DNA from: an uncultured Chloroflexia bacterium
Lineage (GTDB): Bacteria; Chloroflexota; Chloroflexia; QHBQ01; JADMIH01
Length of the DNA: 64,000 nt
Reading direction: 5' to 3'
NCBI GenBank assembly: GCA_963837315.1
Contig: CAWINE010000013.1
Coordinates: 7,099-71,098, forward strand
How positions within the stretch are numbered: the stretch's first letter is position 1; every line of letters begins with the position of its first letter. The notes beneath the pieces were generated by a model. It searched no databases. It was not told the DNA's origin and saw only the letters and a program-made list of their open reading frames with translations. Below are positions 11,862 to 16,356 of this stretch, piece after piece. The translations under genes were made by a program, and so were the position numbers.

Positions 11862-11890
11862 TTGACACCCGGAAGCCCAAAGCTTATAAT
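11862..11890 (+). promoter_or_regulatory. Consensus sigma70 promoter of the pyr operon
   Basis: TTGACA-17 nt-TATAAT, an exact match. Confidence 0.9.
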
Positions 11891-11940
11891 ATTAGGTAGC
11901 TGGAAGCATGGTGCGCCATGCGCGATCCGGCCCGGAACGA

Positions 11941-12034
11941 CCTTTAAAGCCGGCCCAGAGAGGCCGATAAGGTTGGTGTAAAGCATAAGATAGACACAAT
12001 GCCCTGCCAACCTTGCCCTGTGCAAGGTTTTTTT
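11941..12034 (+). promoter_or_regulatory. PyrR-binding attenuator (binding loop, antiterminator, terminator)
   Basis: CCTTTAA..GGCCCAGAGAGGCC..AAGG binding loop; AAGGTTGG (11969) pairs with CCAACCTT (12007); terminator AACCTTGC-CCTGT-GCAAGGTT followed by a T run. Confidence 0.88.
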
Positions 12035-12125
12035 GTAGCCACCGGCTGAGTACAGAGTACCGTTGCCGGTGAAGCAGTAAGCAGGATGCAGTATGCTAAA
12101 CACCGGCCAGGCCCGGAGGACAAAG

Positions 12126-13116
12126 TTGAATATCCCACCAACCCATTACACTCCACCCGCGACCCGGGCAGCGCTGCTCGAATTCATCGCGTTGGAGCGA
12201 AGGGGCCAACGTCGCGAAGGTGAAGGCCGCTCTGTTGCGCACCGCCCAGGATGCGCTCGACGCTGAAGGCTTCACGCAGGTAATGGCTCCCATCCTGACG
12301 GAGCTTTCCGGCGCGTGCGGCGAGCCGGGTACCCTTATCCCGGTCAGCGTGCGTGGACGCCAGGGCTATTTACGCCAGACTTCGCAGCTCCACCTCGAGC
12401 CGCTGATGCGCGAGCTTGGGCGAGTCTACTCGGTAGGAAGCTCGTTCAGGGCTGAGCGCAGGAGCAGCGACCGCCATCTCACCGAGTTCACACTGATAGA
12501 GGCCGAGGCTGCAGACTGGAGCCTCCCCGAGCTTATGTCGCTCATGGAGCAAATGACGGTCAAGATGCTCCACCACGCCGCCACCACCGCGCCCGTCCAG
12601 TTGCGCGCCCTGGGCGCCGACCCCAACGAGATGCTGGCGGTACAGGCCCCTTTCAAGCGGATGACGTATGACGAGGCTATCGTGGCCCTCCAACGAGCCG
12701 GACATTTCATCGAGTGGGGCGAAGACCTCTCCAACCGGCACGAGATTGCGCTGGCCGAGATGGCGGGCGGCCCGCTCTTCGTGACGCGCTACCCGGTCGA
12801 AACTCGCTTCTTCACTATGAAGGTGTGCCGACACGATCCGCGCGTGGTCGAGTGCTGCGACCTGATCCTGCCTGGCGTGGGCGAGGTGATGGGTGCATCC
12901 GAAACCGAGCCGGACGCCGCCCTGCTCGAAGCGCGCATGCACTCATCACGTAACATCCGCCAGATTGTTGACCTGGGCGGCGACGCGAGCGATTACGCCT
13001 GGTACGTCGAAATGCATCGCGCAAGCAGCACCCGCCAGGCAGGCTTCGGTCTTGGCTTCGAGCGCCTCGTGCGCTACGTGTGCAAGCTGGAGACCATACA
13101 GCAGACAGTCAGTTGA
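12126..13116 (+). CDS. AsnRS/AspRS-like class IIb catalytic domain lacking the OB-fold anticodon domain (probable TTG start at 12126, frameshift before 12220)
   Basis: Motif 1 GFTQVMAPIL; YLRQTSQLHLE; motif 2 FRAE..SDRHLTEF; motif 3 GFGLGFERL; GGAGGA RBS at 12115. Confidence 0.88.
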
Positions 13117-13159
13117 ATGCGGAATGCGGAATGCGGAATAGTCTCCGAAATACCTTATA

Positions 13160-14350
13160 ATGCAAAGAAATGAAAACATCGGTAAATCGAGCCTGACTTT
13201 GACAAAATCATTCCGCATTCCGCATTCCACATTCCGCATTCCTTTCTATGATCCCGCCCTCTCCTACCAGCAGAACTACGACCTGGGGCCGTTCGGGGCA
13301 TTCGGAGGGGAGCCCTCGGCTGACGAGGTATCGGCACTCCAATTGCCGGAGAGCGAATGGGCCACAGTGGCGGGGCTTACGGTCAGGAGGCCGGTAGGTA
13401 TTCCGTCGGGGCCGCTGCTCAACGCCAAATTCGTGACGGCGGCCTTCAGGTGGGGATTCGATCTTTGCCATTATAAGACTGTGCGCAGCCGCCAATGGCC
13501 CTCGCACCCTGCCCCCAACGTGCTTCGCGTCGATGCGACTGCGCCGATACCGCCTTCGCAGATTGGGCACGATACCCTCACCGCCCGGCCATTTCATGAA
13601 GGCGAGCCTGTCGACCTTGCGACCCTGAGCATCACCAATTCGTTCGGGATGCCCGCCCAGCCGCCTGACGTGTGGCAGAGCAGACATGGAGCAGGCTGCC
13701 GCGCCGCGCGGGAGGGGCAGGCCCTGATCGCCAGCGTGACCGGCACTGCCGACTCGAACAATGATCCGGCGGCATTTGTGGCCGATCACGCTCGTGCAGC
13801 CGCTATGTGCGCCGAGACGGGCGCGCACGCAATCGAAGTGAACCTGTCATGCCCCAACCTGGGCGGCCACGGCCTCGTATGCCAGGACCCCGAGGCATCG
13901 GCACGGATCTGCAGGGCGGCGAAAGAAGCCATAGGAAACCTCCCTCTATTTGCCAAGCTGGGCAGCTACACGCCGGACGAAGCGGGCGATGCGCTCCTCC
14001 TCAGCATCGTGAAAGCTACCGCGCCCTACATAGCCGGTTACGGCGCGGTAAACGCCGTGCCTGTGCCCATCGCGACCCAGGAAGGCGCGCAGGCGCTGCC
14101 GGGCGTCGGGAGGAACATGGCTGGCGTGTGCGGAACTGCATTGCGCGCCACCGGCCTCGATGTGGTGAGTCGCCTCGCCCGCCTTCGCGCCGCGCACGGC
14201 TACGACTATGCGATTATCGGCGTGGGCGGCATGATCACGCCTGCCGACTACTTCGCCTACCGCCGGGCTGGAGCAGACGCGGTGCAGGGCGCAACCGGGC
14301 CGATGTGGAACCACAGGCTGGCGGTAGAGATTGCACTGGCAGGAAGCTAG
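13160..14350 (+). CDS. pyrD: Atypical dihydroorotate dehydrogenase family protein (FMN TIM barrel)
   Basis: PVGIPSGPLLN, YKTVRS, NSFGMP, EVNLSCPN with catalytic Cys, GVGG; under PyrR control. Confidence 0.8.
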   Translation: MQRNENIGKSSLTLTKSFRIPHSTFRIPFYDPALSYQQNYDLGPFGAFGGEPSADEVSALQLPESEWATVAGLTVRRPVGIPSGPLLNAKFVTAAFRWGFDLCHYKTVRSRQWPSHPAPNVLRVDATAPIPPSQIGHDTLTARPFHEGEPVDLATLSITNSFGMPAQPPDVWQSRHGAGCRAAREGQALIASVTGTADSNNDPAAFVADHARAAAMCAETGAHAIEVNLSCPNLGGHGLVCQDPEASARICRAAKEAIGNLPLFAKLGSYTPDEAGDALLLSIVKATAPYIAGYGAVNAVPVPIATQEGAQALPGVGRNMAGVCGTALRATGLDVVSRLARLRAAHGYDYAIIGVGGMITPADYFAYRRAGADAVQGATGPMWNHRLAVEIALAGS

Positions 14351-14361
14351 GCACTATTCCC

Positions 14362-14724
14362 ATGACCCTCAAATCGCCCGAACTCGCCGAAGCAAGAGCC
14401 AGGCAGACGATACTGGCCGCCCAGGTATTTCTATCAAACGCGAGCGCCATCAGCGACCACTGCAACTGGGCGCAAGAAGATCAGGTAGTTATTGCCGTGG
14501 TAAAACGCGACCTCACCTTCGACGGGGCAATTATCGCGCCCTTGAGCCGGCTACGCGAAGAGGTAATGTCGCGCCTGAATAGCGGCTGGACGCTCGTGTT
14601 TTCTCCCGGCACAACGGAAAGGGATATTGTGGTGCGGTGCGATAAGATGGCACAACTGGCCCAGGCAAGGTTGGATGTGATAAGGCGATGGAGAGACAAA
14701 CGATCTGACCAAAATAATGGATGA
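14362..14724 (+). CDS. Hypothetical 120-aa soluble protein in the pyr operon
   Basis: ATG 11 nt after the pyrD stop; protein-like composition (MTLKSPELAEARARQ...). Confidence 0.65.
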   Translation: MTLKSPELAEARARQTILAAQVFLSNASAISDHCNWAQEDQVVIAVVKRDLTFDGAIIAPLSRLREEVMSRLNSGWTLVFSPGTTERDIVVRCDKMAQLAQARLDVIRRWRDKRSDQNNG

Positions 14725-14767
14725 TAAAGTTGTAGTACAACTTTATCATCCATTATTTTGGTCAGAT
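14703..14767. repeat. Perfect 32-bp-arm palindrome with a 1-nt spacer
   Basis: atctgaccaaaataatggatgataaagttgta-g-tacaactttatcatccattattttggtcagat. Confidence 0.95.
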
Positions 14768-14807
14768 TGAGGTAATTCAGAGTTTCACAAAGAAGGAGAA
14801 AAGCCTG

Positions 14808-16298
14808 ATGCAGATAGATAGCGTCGAAGCGAGCACCGAAGCAACCCTCACCTGGGCCGAGCGCCTGCAGGAGGCCATCGTGAGCCAGCAGAGCATCCTC
14901 TGCGTGGGCCTCGACCCCATCTACGAGAAGATGCCCTCAGAGCGCAAGACGGGCGACGTGGCGGGCGATATATTCGAGTACAACAAAGGCATAATAGATG
15001 GTGCCGCGCCTTTCGCCGCTGCTTTCAAGCCGCAGTACAAGTGCTATTCCGCCGAAGGCGAAGCCGGCATCACGGCCCTGCGCCGCACCTGCGCTTATAT
15101 CAAGGAAAACTACCCGCATATCCCGGTGATCCTGGACGCCAAGTACGCCGATATCGGGCATGTGCTTGAGCGCTGCGCGCACGAGGCGTTTGATATGCTG
15201 GGAGTCGACGCCGTGACCGCCATGCCCGCGCCAGGCCGGCAGGCGTTATCGCCTCTGATTTCGAGGCGAGGTAAGGGCTGTTTTATGGTGGTGCGGACCT
15301 CTAACCCCGGAGCCGGCGAATTGCAGGACATAGAGGTAGAGGGCGGCGAGCCGCTCTATATTGCCATAGCGCGCAAGATAGCCGAAGGCTGGGATCAAGG
15401 CGGAAGCGTGGGGCTGGTCGCCCCCGCCACCGATCCCGCCGTGCTCGCAGCGGTAAGAGAGGCTGCACCTTACTTGCCAATCCTCTGCCCGGGCGTGGGA
15501 GCACAAGGAGGCGACCTTGTCGCGGCTGTGGAGGCAGGGCTGGATGCAAACGGTGCGGGGCTGGTGATCAACGTATCACGAGCGATCATGGAAGCACCTG
15601 ACCCCGGCAAGGCAGCTCGTGAATGGCGCGACCTCATGGAAGCCGCGAGACTGGGGCGGAGCGAAGCGCGAAACGCGAACCATAAATCGGCCCTGGAAGA
15701 AGTGGTGTTAGAAATGTTCAAGATCGGGGCGATACAGTTCAAGCCCGTGACTCTGAAATCGGGGCTGGTGTCGCCCTACTACAACAACCTCAGGCTACTC
15801 TCCTCGTACCCTCGCCTGCTTCGGAAAGTTGCCGCTCTTATGTCAAGCAAGATGGCAGAGGTTTCGCTCAAGCCCGATATCGTGGTGGGCATTGCGATGG
15901 CCGGTATACCGTTGGCGGTGGCGCTTTCGCAATATACAGGTATTCCAGGAGGCTACGTGCGTACCGAGGCCAAAGGGCATGGCACAAAGCAGATGGTGGA
16001 AGGCGTCTGGCCCCAAGGCGCAACGGCGGTGCTTGTGGACGACGTGGTATCGGACGGAGCTAGCAAGCTCGAAGTGATCGGTCATCTCGAAGAGGCGGGC
16101 CTCAAAGCGCAGGACATAGTCGTGCTAGTGGACCGGGGCCAGGGCGGACCTGCCCTCATGGCGCGGCATGGCCTGAAGTGCCACGCGGTCGCCACTATGG
16201 ACCAGGTGCTCGATATTCTCCTGGGGGAAGGGCTTATCACGGAAACTCAGGTGGGAGAATCGCGCAAATTCATGAAGGATGCGCAGGCGCAAAGCTAG
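14808..16298 (+). CDS. pyrF: Bifunctional OMP decarboxylase / orotate phosphoribosyltransferase (PyrF-PyrE fusion)
   Basis: LCVGLDP, ILDAKYADIG, RTSNPG, PGVGAQGG; C-terminal LKSG..SPYY and the PRPP motif LVDDVVSDGAS. Confidence 0.95.
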   Translation: MQIDSVEASTEATLTWAERLQEAIVSQQSILCVGLDPIYEKMPSERKTGDVAGDIFEYNKGIIDGAAPFAAAFKPQYKCYSAEGEAGITALRRTCAYIKENYPHIPVILDAKYADIGHVLERCAHEAFDMLGVDAVTAMPAPGRQALSPLISRRGKGCFMVVRTSNPGAGELQDIEVEGGEPLYIAIARKIAEGWDQGGSVGLVAPATDPAVLAAVREAAPYLPILCPGVGAQGGDLVAAVEAGLDANGAGLVINVSRAIMEAPDPGKAAREWRDLMEAARLGRSEARNANHKSALEEVVLEMFKIGAIQFKPVTLKSGLVSPYYNNLRLLSSYPRLLRKVAALMSSKMAEVSLKPDIVVGIAMAGIPLAVALSQYTGIPGGYVRTEAKGHGTKQMVEGVWPQGATAVLVDDVVSDGASKLEVIGHLEEAGLKAQDIVVLVDRGQGGPALMARHGLKCHAVATMDQVLDILLGEGLITETQVGESRKFMKDAQAQS

Positions 16299-16302
16299 GA
16301 TC

Positions 16303-16356
16303 GTGTAAGCATGAAAAATCGGGCGCGCTTTGCGCGCCATTTTTTCATGCTTACAC
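16303..16356. terminator. Bidirectional terminator between convergent genes
   Basis: gtgtaagcatgaaaaa..ggcgcgc-ttt-gcgcgcc..tttttcatgcttacac. Confidence 0.85.

Follow-up and report, generated by a model that had tools for sequence, protein, structure and literature searches.

Why would an operon for the last steps of pyrimidine synthesis begin with a shortened copy of the enzyme that charges tRNA with asparagine? This question was raised by a 64,000-nucleotide stretch of DNA (the window) from an uncultured Chloroflexia bacterium (assembly GCA_963837315.1, contig CAWINE010000013.1, positions 7,099 to 71,098), in which a promoter and a putative PyrR attenuator precede four genes, the first of which, here called X, encodes an AsnRS-like catalytic core with no anticodon domain. 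The original prediction was that X occupies the slot of the early pyrimidine enzymes, where it might, for example, replace PyrC; no pyrB, pyrC or carAB was seen in the operon or the window. To answer it, we first established the anatomy of the locus, with positions numbered from the first letter of the window, as follows.

11862–11890, plus strand: sigma-70-type promoter, TTGACA-17 nt-TATAAT, matching 12 of 12 consensus positions.
11937–12036, plus strand: predicted PyrR attenuator, with a PyrR-binding hairpin at about 11940–11975 carrying the loop CCAGAGAGG at 11954–11962, an antiterminator pairing of 11970–11977 with 12007–12014, and a terminator stem at 12009–12029 followed by a T-run to 12036.
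12126–13116, plus strand: X, a truncated AsnRS-like catalytic core with no anticodon-binding domain.
13115–13242, no strand assigned: 25-nt inverted repeat built of GGAATGC units, with arms at 13115–13139, in the X-pyrD spacer, and 13210–13242, inside the first codons of pyrD, that are 96% complementary.
13160–14350, plus strand: divergent dihydroorotate dehydrogenase (DHODH, PyrD*) with a class-1-like NLSCPN motif and an extra N-terminal region.
14362–14724, plus strand: 120-aa ORF of unknown function, variable within the genus.
14719–14751, plus strand: perfect 15-bp hairpin with a 3-nt loop, read from the sequence, overlapping the stop codon of the 120-aa ORF and flagged as palindromic promoter-like sites on both strands.
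14808–16298, plus strand: bifunctional PyrF-PyrE (OMP decarboxylase subfamily 2 fused to orotate phosphoribosyltransferase).
16322–16338, plus strand: operon terminator, a 7-bp G+C stem followed by a T-run.

The observation behind the original prediction was confirmed, as all of the elements it described are present at the stated coordinates, with four corrections. First, X most likely starts at TTG 12126, behind GGAGG at 12115–12119, and not at GTG 12220, from which the uninterrupted frame runs; comparison of the N-terminus with the 91%-identical protein P0006, and with a relative's contig that lacks base 12181, showed that this assembly carries one extra base at 12181 that shifts the frame, so that X could be damaged in this strain. 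Second, the covariance-model match of the leader to the Rfam PyrR family (RF00515), although it covers the full model length, scores 42.2 bits (E 1.9e-4 locally), below the gathering score of 54. Third, the absence of pyrB, pyrC and carAB is true of the window, but these genes exist elsewhere in the genome or genus. Fourth, the 120-aa ORF is dispensable, as homologs, at 41–48% identity, occur in only 3 of 14 genus loci; in G013 the ORF is tightly packed between pyrD and pyrFE; no Pfam family matched it and a search of the Atlas protein clusters returned no usable hit.

Despite its sub-threshold score, the leader is the only RF00515 match at E ≤ 1 in the whole 5.44-Mb genome (E 4.1e-4), and the binding hairpin, antiterminator, terminator and T-run are legible in all 15 leaders printed, the window plus 14 genus loci, with base changes in the upper stem. 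The alternative pairings were read from the sequence. A pyrR gene is present elsewhere in the genome (contig C27, 110727–111248; NF003549, 235 bits against a cut-off of 138). These results support the claim of the original prediction that the leader is a PyrR attenuator, with PyrR binding itself inferred from sequence alone.

The two downstream enzymes were identified by profile searches. The DHODH matches PF01180 at 66.3 bits against a cut-off of 27 but falls far below the NCBIfam equivalog cut-offs (59 against 270), and it is the only DHO_dh hit over the cut-off in the genome. Full-length relatives at 39–44% identity were found in 10 of 10 genomes of a family designated f6, and in both f6 loci scanned the gene directly follows a carbamoyltransferase gene. 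The fusion protein contains both domains (PF00215, 105.8 bits; PF00156, 55.4 bits) and passes TIGR02127 at 200 bits against 110.6, but not NF004034 (253 against 656) or TIGR00336 (100.2 against 106.8); it is the only OMPdecase hit in the genome. As the DHODH and PyrF-PyrE are the only copies found in this 84%-complete genome, this is the housekeeping late-pyrimidine operon.

We next asked what X is. The only Pfam domain found was PF00152 (158.8 bits), with no OB-fold. X lies below all NCBIfam cut-offs, including those for asparagine--tRNA ligase (TIGR00457, 198.5 against 342.6; NF003037, 206.5 against 414) and for archaeal asparagine synthetase A (NF005052 to NF005055, 126.6/368, 83.2/309, 45/322 and 35/389), and none of 7 other family members reaches a cut-off of the latter. 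No match to AsnA-type asparagine synthetase (PF03590) was found on X or anywhere in the genome. The best PDB sequence match was Pyrococcus horikoshii AsnRS at 169 bits, while the archaeal asparagine synthetase scored 29.5 bits, and an AF2 model of the ortholog P0025 (pLDDT 89.8) gave AsnRS 1X54 as its best fold match (TM 0.82). Homologs are 320–335 aa long, the open frame extends at most 94 aa upstream of the core in the 22 complete truncated loci, and the first 21 residues of the model are disordered, leaving no sign of an anticodon module. The class II motifs are retained, as R113, R121, E130, E132, D250, E258 and R318, which include the motif-2 and motif-3 arginines and the D/E pair in DLLLP..GE, are invariant in 32 of 32 aligned family members. 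Of the Asn side-chain pocket of Thermus thermophilus AsnRS (Glu225 and Arg368), the Glu is kept, but the residue aligned with Arg368 is Thr in GASETE in all six genus sequences read, while the wider family keeps the Arg, so conclusions drawn from the wider family may not transfer to this genus. X is under constraint, with orthologs 64–84% identical, compared to 62–77% for PyrD and 68–72% for PyrFE. X belongs to an uncharacterised family of truncated AsnRS-like proteins, of which full-text literature searches found no description.

Given the absence of the early genes from the window, we tested whether X could be standing in for them. The genome has pyrB (321 bits against a cut-off of 237) and a dihydroorotase-type gene (271 bits against a cut-off of 279), the ortholog of which sits in a pyrC-pyrD-pyrE-pyrF cluster in G005, a congener that lacks X. 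PyrC-type genes were found in 23 of 24 congeners and in 6 of 6 other X-bearing genomes tested, and carB was found in 19 of 24 congeners. There is therefore no anticorrelation with pyrB or pyrC, and the idea that X replaces early enzymes is not supported.

The second expectation, that homologs should be linked to pyr genes elsewhere, had been set out beforehand as a test and came out positive in about eight lineages of Bacteria and Archaea, in which family members lie beside pyrD, pyrE, pyrF or pyrR. In the genus, X is followed by pyrD in 13 of 14 loci and by pyrFE in 10 of 14. In Ktedonobacteria, linkage was found in 11 of 11 loci, ten with pyrF nearby, with the order X-pyrE-pyrF-pyrD read in locus L079, and one with pyrR-X. 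X-pyrF·E was found in a Terraquivivens archaeon, X-PRTase-pyrD-pyrC-pyrB-pyrI in a woesearchaeote, X with pyrK·D, pyrF and pyrE in Sericytochromatia and bacterium L100, an X gene abutting a pyrD·pyrK fusion gene in Chloroflexota genome G144, and pyrF 0.8 kb downstream of X in metagenome locus L151. However, many archaeal family members are not next to pyr genes, which applies to 8 of 13 non-Ktedonobacteria truncated genome loci and to 5 of 6 metagenome loci whose immediate neighbours were scanned, so the family as a whole may have a general role such as asparagine synthesis. No fusion of X to a pyr domain was seen among 10 long representatives. Taken together, the interpretation offered in the original prediction was supported in part: the attenuator and the linkage hold, while the replacement of missing early enzymes does not find support.

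Our preferred reading, to which we assign a probability of roughly 0.55 in the absence of any biochemical data, is that the locus is the housekeeping operon for the last three steps of UMP synthesis (dihydroorotate to orotate to OMP to UMP) and that X is an added accessory enzyme of the orotate branch that does not replace CarAB, PyrB or PyrC. In this view, inferred from sequence, transcription starts at the consensus promoter and is gated by the attenuator: PyrR would hold the binding hairpin at 11940–11975 when uridine nucleotides are high, so that the terminator at 12009–12036 forms, and when they are low 11970–11977 would pair with 12007–12014 and transcription would read through. X would be a catalytically competent AsnRS catalytic core that probably works without tRNA, adenylating the carboxyl group of an Asn/Asp-like substrate and passing the acyl group to a small nucleophile in a reaction that serves pyrD/pyrE/pyrF. 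What the analysis establishes is the operon anatomy, the attenuator elements, the family placement, the retained ATP motifs, the gene linkage across lineages and the presence of the canonical early genes, whereas PyrR binding and nucleotide-dependent termination, catalysis by X, its independence from tRNA, and its actual substrate and product are inferred.

The alternative that survives best, though we consider it unlikely, is that X is an ordinary ammonia-dependent asparagine synthetase (Asp + NH3 + ATP), a second, independent AsnRS-derived synthetase alongside the archaeal one, with its position beside pyr genes reflecting shared use of aspartate or inherited synteny, not a pyrimidine function. 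Truncated AsnRS/AspRS paralogs with this activity are known, the similarity of X to NF005052 is weak but full-length, the Atlas clusters nearest to X carry the automatic name 'asparagine synthetase A', and most archaeal members have unrelated neighbours. All 5 X-bearing genomes tested keep full-length PF00152 paralogs that could use free Asn, and the 3 archaeal genomes among them have no AsnB match over the cut-off. However, the two bacterial genomes tested have AsnB over the cut-off and the window's genome has at least four AsnB-type loci, making X redundant for Asn there. The failed cut-offs, the low score against the solved archaeal enzyme and the loss of the pocket arginine in the genus also count against this reading, switching on an aspartate-consuming enzyme during pyrimidine starvation is hard to rationalise, and linkage to pyr genes in about eight lineages with different gene orders argues for functional coupling.

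A more far-reaching possibility, which we regard as doubtful but not excluded, is that the family, or its bacterial pyr-linked branch, catalyses a so far unknown ATP-dependent step of de novo pyrimidine synthesis, the most concrete candidate being a carbamoyl-aspartate cyclo-ligase ('dihydroorotate synthetase') that would drive ring closure through a beta-acyl-adenylate and feed DHODH, as an energy-coupled alternative or booster to the reversible, zinc-dependent dihydroorotase. The narrower form of this idea, a weakened version of the original prediction and slightly less likely still, is that X adenylates the beta-carboxyl of N-carbamoyl-aspartate and the ureido nitrogen closes the ring, pulling the unfavourable dihydroorotase equilibrium beside PyrC rather than instead of it. 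This would be consistent with X being most often linked to pyrD, directly upstream of it in the genus and in G144 and in a shared cluster in Ktedonobacteria, L100 and the loci L096 and L093 (the latter the woesearchaeote), as well as with its predicted PyrR control, its intact ATP motifs and the parallel with beta-aspartyl-AMP formation by asparagine synthetases. Against it, there is no anticorrelation with PyrC, X and pyrC share a cluster in L093, the residues that bind a free alpha-amino group in class IIb enzymes (QTxQLxLE) are kept, and in L088 and L078 X stands with pyrF·E or pyrR and no pyrD. Least likely, a non-catalytic or regulatory partnership with a phosphoribosyltransferase-fold protein (PyrE or PyrR) or DHODH, in the manner of HisZ, a HisRS paralog that regulates HisG, is suggested by the position of X directly next to PyrE in L079, a 346-aa PRTase in L093, PyrF·E in L088 and PyrR in L078, and by a PRTase-domain fusion two genes upstream in L133, but HisZ has lost the catalytic motifs, whereas the retention of the motif-2 and motif-3 arginines and the metal-binding acidic residues in X points to an enzyme.

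De novo UMP synthesis is regarded as a closed six-step pathway. A conserved, catalytically intact aaRS paralog, as judged from its motifs, and with predicted nucleotide regulation, in front of pyrD/pyrE/pyrF in Chloroflexota, Sericytochromatia and some archaea would mean either that there is an extra enzymatic step or bypass, or that this is a new case of an aaRS core recruited into metabolism, as happened with AsnA, AS-AR and HisZ. Databases currently name these genes 'asparaginyl-tRNA synthetase' or 'asparagine synthetase A', a naming that is probably wrong for translation and unproven for asparagine synthesis.

Compared to Bacillus-type attenuation by PyrR (RF00515), the leader shares the binding hairpin with the CCAGAGAGG-type loop, the competing antiterminator and terminator, and a pyrR gene in the genome, but it scores below the gathering threshold and is the only such site in the genome, in front of the late genes, while pyrB and pyrC stand alone without a detectable site. 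Like HisZ, X is an aaRS catalytic-domain paralog without an anticodon domain, and HisZ is likewise encoded next to a phosphoribosyltransferase in a biosynthetic operon, but X keeps its catalytic motifs. With asparaginyl-tRNA synthetase (P. horikoshii 1X54, T. thermophilus 5ZG8), X shares the class IIb catalytic fold, with 36% identity to 1X54, but it differs in its missing OB-fold, in about 10 extra residues before the DFxWYL segment, in the signatures TGAC and KFFNMRQN, in an acidic residue before RHL in the motif-2 loop, and, in this genus, in the Thr at the Arg368 position. The archaeal asparagine synthetase AS-AR (Pyrococcus abyssi 3P8T) is likewise a truncated AsnRS/AspRS-like core; it works without tRNA, as is inferred for X, and is the precedent for adenylate chemistry on Asp, a comparison that holds only by analogy, since X is much closer to genuine AsnRS, represents a different truncation lineage and is linked to pyrimidine genes.

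To establish the anatomy of the locus, the window (C13:7099-71098 of the genome G000, a 5.44-Mb, 28-contig, 83.9%-complete assembly whose proteins have public relatives labelled Chloroflexia or Chloroflexota MAGs) was scanned for promoters, terminators, RNA families, protein families and repeats. The features, in order, are as follows.

11862-11890, + strand, promoter TTGACA-17-TATAAT
11937-12036, + strand, match to the PyrR binding site model RF00515, within a 235-nt leader
12126-13116, + strand, X, the truncated AsnRS-like gene, with one extra base in this assembly
13115-13139 and 13210-13242, arms of a 25-nt inverted repeat (96% complementary) made of GGAATGC units
13160-14350, + strand, DHODH-like gene
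14362-14724, + strand, 120-aa ORF
14719-14751, perfect 15-bp hairpin with a 3-nt loop
14808-16298, + strand, PyrF-PyrE fusion
16322-16338, + strand, G+C-rich terminator

The promoter matches the consensus at 12 of 12 positions, whereas shuffles of the 5-kb region gave 1.8 promoter-like sites on average at the scan's threshold of 9 of 12. The inverted repeat brackets the start of the DHODH gene, its 3′ arm encodes FRIPHSTFRIP, and it could fold over the pyrD start region or be a small repeat element. The hairpin overlaps the stop codon of the 120-aa ORF, 56 nt before pyrF-pyrE, and could be an RNA processing, stability or partial termination site. The 120-aa ORF itself gave no Pfam family and no Atlas hit. 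The original prediction, that a consensus promoter and a PyrR attenuator precede a truncated AsnRS-like gene, a divergent DHODH, a 120-aa ORF and a PyrF-PyrE fusion, is borne out by these scans.

Rfam at the gathering threshold found nothing in the window. With an E-value threshold, RF00515 matched 11937-12036 over the whole model at 42.2 bits, against a gathering score of 54, with E 1.9e-4, and in a scan of the whole genome this was the only match at E<=1 (E 4.1e-4). As read from the sequence, the hairpin at 11940-11975 carries the loop CCAGAGAGG, and its 3′ half (AAGGTTGG, 11970-11977) can instead pair with CCAACCTT at 12007-12014, which overlaps the 5′ arm of the terminator at 12009-12029, followed by seven T. 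This is the classic anti-antiterminator, antiterminator and terminator arrangement. The same elements were present in all 15 leaders compared, 14 orthologous leaders from the same genus plus the window: ACCTTTAA, a stem, CC[A/C/T]G[A/T/C]GAGG, the stem's return, AAGGTTGG (AAGGTC in the genus locus L043), a C+A-rich 5′ arm ending in CCTTGC, a loop, its complement ending in AGGT, and a run of T. The upper stem shows base changes on both sides. A pyrR gene is present in the genome at 235 bits against a cut-off of 138. We accept the attenuator, although binding by PyrR is inferred from sequence alone.

The uninterrupted frame of X starts at GTG 12220 and gives 298 aa, while database relatives are 320-335 aa. 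The 91%-identical protein P0006 begins LNIPPTGYTPPATRAAMLDSSRWSEGANV. In the window, the frame opening at TTG 12126, six bases behind GGAGG, gives MNIPPTHYTPPATRAALL, whereas the GTG frame gives SSRWSEGANV, and the two frames meet at the 'gaa' of 12180-12182. In a soil run, a 347-nt contig of a relative of about 91% identity spans 11927-12275 and lacks exactly base 12181; without that base the reading becomes ...AALLDSSRW..., as in P0006, indicating that X is 12126-13116 with one extra base in this assembly. A 99.5%-identical contig starts at 12183 and does not bridge the site. Several other genes of this assembly are also split into adjacent frames (C21:16132-17065, C18:241426-242769, C5:515496-517179, C8:7842-9492 and C8:359251-361048), namely the canonical asnS on C21, another class IIb synthetase (a PF00152 gene on C18, in three pieces) and three AsnB-type genes. 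This suggests an indel-prone assembly, and we suspect an assembly error at 12181, but a real frameshift in this strain is not excluded. The N-terminal ~30 residues are variable among relatives and disordered in the predicted structure.

X-type hits of at least 63% identity occurred in 21 of 24 other genomes of the genus, one of them a partial hit, and the three without were G003 (71% complete), G005 (91%) and G006 (57%). None of 16 genomes outside the genus had a hit above 39% identity. In 14 fetched genus loci, X is followed by the DHODH in 13, and in the fourteenth the contig ends. PyrF-PyrE follows in 10; three of the four misses end within ~0.5 kb, and the locus L031 has 2.3 kb of sequence without it. 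The 120-aa ORF has a homolog in 3 of the 14, and in the congener G013 the four genes are tightly packed. Identities to the window are 64-84% for X, 62-77% for the DHODH and 68-72% for PyrF-PyrE, indicating that X is as constrained as its housekeeping neighbours. The congener tallies for X, for PyrC-type genes and for carB, those for the DHODH in a second family and for the phylum-wide sample below, and the loci L029, L042, L044, L059 and L063, include the unpublished genomes G017, G022, G023, G032 and G304, but no conclusion rests on these alone.

Given that the original prediction placed X in the slot of missing early enzymes, possibly in place of PyrC, we searched for these genes elsewhere. 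The window's DHODH and PyrF-PyrE are the only DHO_dh and OMPdecase hits over the cut-off in the genome. A pyrB gene stands alone on C18 (locus L012, 8970-10121), at 321 bits against a cut-off of 237; its product is 383 aa and matches the ATCase model in two stretches, with an insertion near profile position 239, and no pyrI or pyrC lies next to it. No PyrR site was found near this pyrB or elsewhere in the genome. A dihydroorotase-type gene on C17 scores 271 bits against 279, and its best matches are all dihydroorotases. Its orthologs occur in 23 of 24 congeners. The one in G005, which lacks X, lies in that genome's pyr cluster, where a canonical pyrD is flanked by the pyrC-type gene and by separate pyrE and pyrF. 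A search for carB found none in the window's own genome, but carB is present in 19 of 24 congeners, and we put the miss down to incompleteness. PyrC-type genes were present in 6 of 6 other X-bearing genomes tested, at E<=1e-56. X as a replacement for PyrC, PyrB or CarAB was therefore rejected on gene content, and the pathway is complete without X. X as the only route to asparagine was likewise rejected, since the genome has at least four AsnB-type loci. The divergent DHODH is itself a lineage form, with full-length relatives at 39-44% identity in 10 of 10 genomes of another family of the class. In both loci of that family that were scanned (L068 and L070), it directly follows a carbamoyltransferase (pyrB-like) gene, with no pyrC between them and no X.

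Linkage of X to pyrimidine genes outside the genus was examined with P0112, the Ktedonobacteria form. A scan of genome contigs gave 27 loci, of which 24 encode truncated forms, two of them cut by a contig end, and 3 encode full-length AsnRS. All 11 Ktedonobacteria loci are pyr-associated. Ten have pyrF downstream, and in one locus, L079, the order is X, a 196-aa PRTase (PyrE), pyrF and pyrD, with gaps of 10 nt or less. The locus L078 (7135-10187), from a Ktedonobacterales MAG, has a weak PyrR site, pyrR and then X, followed by a ZnuA/ZnuC/ZnuB zinc-uptake set. If co-regulated, this single locus would fit a zinc-sparing role beside the zinc enzyme PyrC. Of the other 13 truncated loci, 5 are pyr-linked. 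In L088, from a Terraquivivens archaeon, the stop of X abuts a PyrF-PyrE fusion, and this genome holds, in addition to X and two full-length genes, a second truncated PF00152 paralog with a 328-aa open frame (G376:C46:4593-5528). In L093, from a Woesearchaeote, the order is X, a PRTase, pyrD with a C-terminal extension, pyrC, pyrB and pyrI. In L094 and L096, from Sericytochromatia, and in the bacterial locus L100, X is found with a ~620-aa DHODH that carries an N-terminal extension, plus pyrF and pyrE. Eight loci gave no pyr hit with our queries, the DPANN loci (Micrarchaeota, Woesearchaeota, Nanoarchaeota) and the unclassified archaeal MAGs among them.

A sample of 301 genomes of the phylum searched with P0112 gave mostly full-length AsnRS and one truncated hit, in G144, which belongs to another Chloroflexota family. 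Here the X gene abuts a 563-aa gene whose product has an N-terminal half that is a DHODH, 36% identical to that of L100, and a C-terminal half carrying PyrK-like GGGTG and CGxGxCGxC strings. Two tightly packed ORFs of 264 and 220 aa upstream of X-pyrD·pyrK (L184, G144:C119, 5695-7126, minus strand) have no PDB relative and no BLASTP likeness to PyrF-PyrE. Of 80 metagenome loci, six had their immediate neighbours scanned (13 ORFs), and of these only L151 has a pyr gene, an OMP decarboxylase 0.8 kb downstream of X, while the others have unrelated, archaeal-looking neighbours. A further locus, L133, encodes at 51-1715 a 554-aa protein that joins a prenyltransferase/terpene-cyclase-like toroid to a C-terminal phosphoribosyltransferase domain, two genes upstream of the truncated AsnRS-like gene. 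A search for informative fusions returned nothing of use, as 10 long representatives were canonical AsnRS with OB-folds or carried unrelated N-terminal domains. Taken together, the bacterial members examined are pyr-linked in every lineage looked at, while archaeal members mostly are not. Full-text literature searches found no paper that links an AsnRS-like paralog to pyrimidine genes, and a comparative study of RNA-motif regulons that includes PyrR (PMC3766115) does not contain the word stem 'asparagin' in its main text, although supplementary regulon tables could list such a gene.

The anatomy of the operon, the leader elements, the presence of the early genes and the recurrent linkage are shown by these sequence data, whereas PyrR binding, any catalytic activity of X, including asparagine or dihydroorotate formation, its independence from tRNA and its role in the pathway are inferred. 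Three points favor a pyrimidine-specific accessory role for the bacterial forms and for this locus: AsnB is redundant there, X is under inferred PyrR control, and the pyr linkage is recurrent, with varied gene orders. We put this reading at a probability of about 0.55. The interpretation in the original prediction is thus supported only in part, since linkage of homologs to pyr genes, which it had set as a test, was found elsewhere, but replacement of the early enzymes was not supported. A plain asparagine synthetase is the default by analogy and may well describe the archaeal members, as three archaeal X-bearing genomes keep full-length PF00152 paralogs and have no AsnB match over the cut-off, but for this locus we consider it unlikely. 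Within the pyrimidine-specific reading, the most concrete mechanism is ATP-driven closure of carbamoyl-aspartate to dihydroorotate as a booster to PyrC. It fits the frequent adjacency to pyrD and is contradicted only in its replacement form, yet it remains doubtful. A complex prediction for X with PyrF-PyrE scored 0.00 against a mark of 0.32, which is neither for nor against binding. A role for X as a regulatory partner is very unlikely, given the retained ATP and metal residues.

Alignments place X in a family of ~300-360-aa proteins that share features absent from the full-length AsnRS in the same alignments: TGAC(E) with an invariant Cys, QTxQLxLE, an acidic residue two or three positions before RHLxEF in the motif-2 loop, KFFNM(R/K), DLLLPxxGExxGxxERE, and an insertion of about ten residues before DFxWYL. 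The motif-2 and motif-3 arginines and the acidic pair are invariant in 32 of 32 sequences. The family has two flavours of motif 3, GFGxGFERL in this genus, Ktedonobacteria and some metagenome proteins, and (A/S)G(C/A)GIGxxR in archaea, Sericytochromatia and L100.

Compared with known systems, the retained ATP and metal residues argue for an enzyme rather than a HisZ-like pseudo-enzyme, while the missing OB-fold and the acidic motif-2 loop argue against tRNA charging. Pfam finds only tRNA-synt_2 in X, at 158.8 bits, and every NCBIfam equivalog is missed: AsnRS at 206.5 against 414 and 198.5 against 342.6, AspRS(Asn) at 141.6 against 353, and archaeal 'asparagine synthetase A' at 126.6 against 368. 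None of 8 family members scanned, including P0006, reaches any NCBIfam cut-off. The archaeal asparagine synthetase 3P8T, of the AS-AR type (Roy 2003; Blaise 2011), scores 29.5 bits, whereas the closest solved protein is P. horikoshii AsnRS at 169 bits, and an AlphaFold model of the ortholog P0025 (pLDDT 89.8) superposes on AsnRS 1X54 with TM 0.82 and 36% identity. The genus form is derived. In T. thermophilus AsnRS, Glu225 and Arg368 hold the Asn carboxamide, and in the alignment to this enzyme the Glu is kept but Arg368 aligns with Thr (GASETE against GGSQR). All six genus sequences read have ASETE, while the rest of the family keeps the Arg, which is at least 90% conserved.
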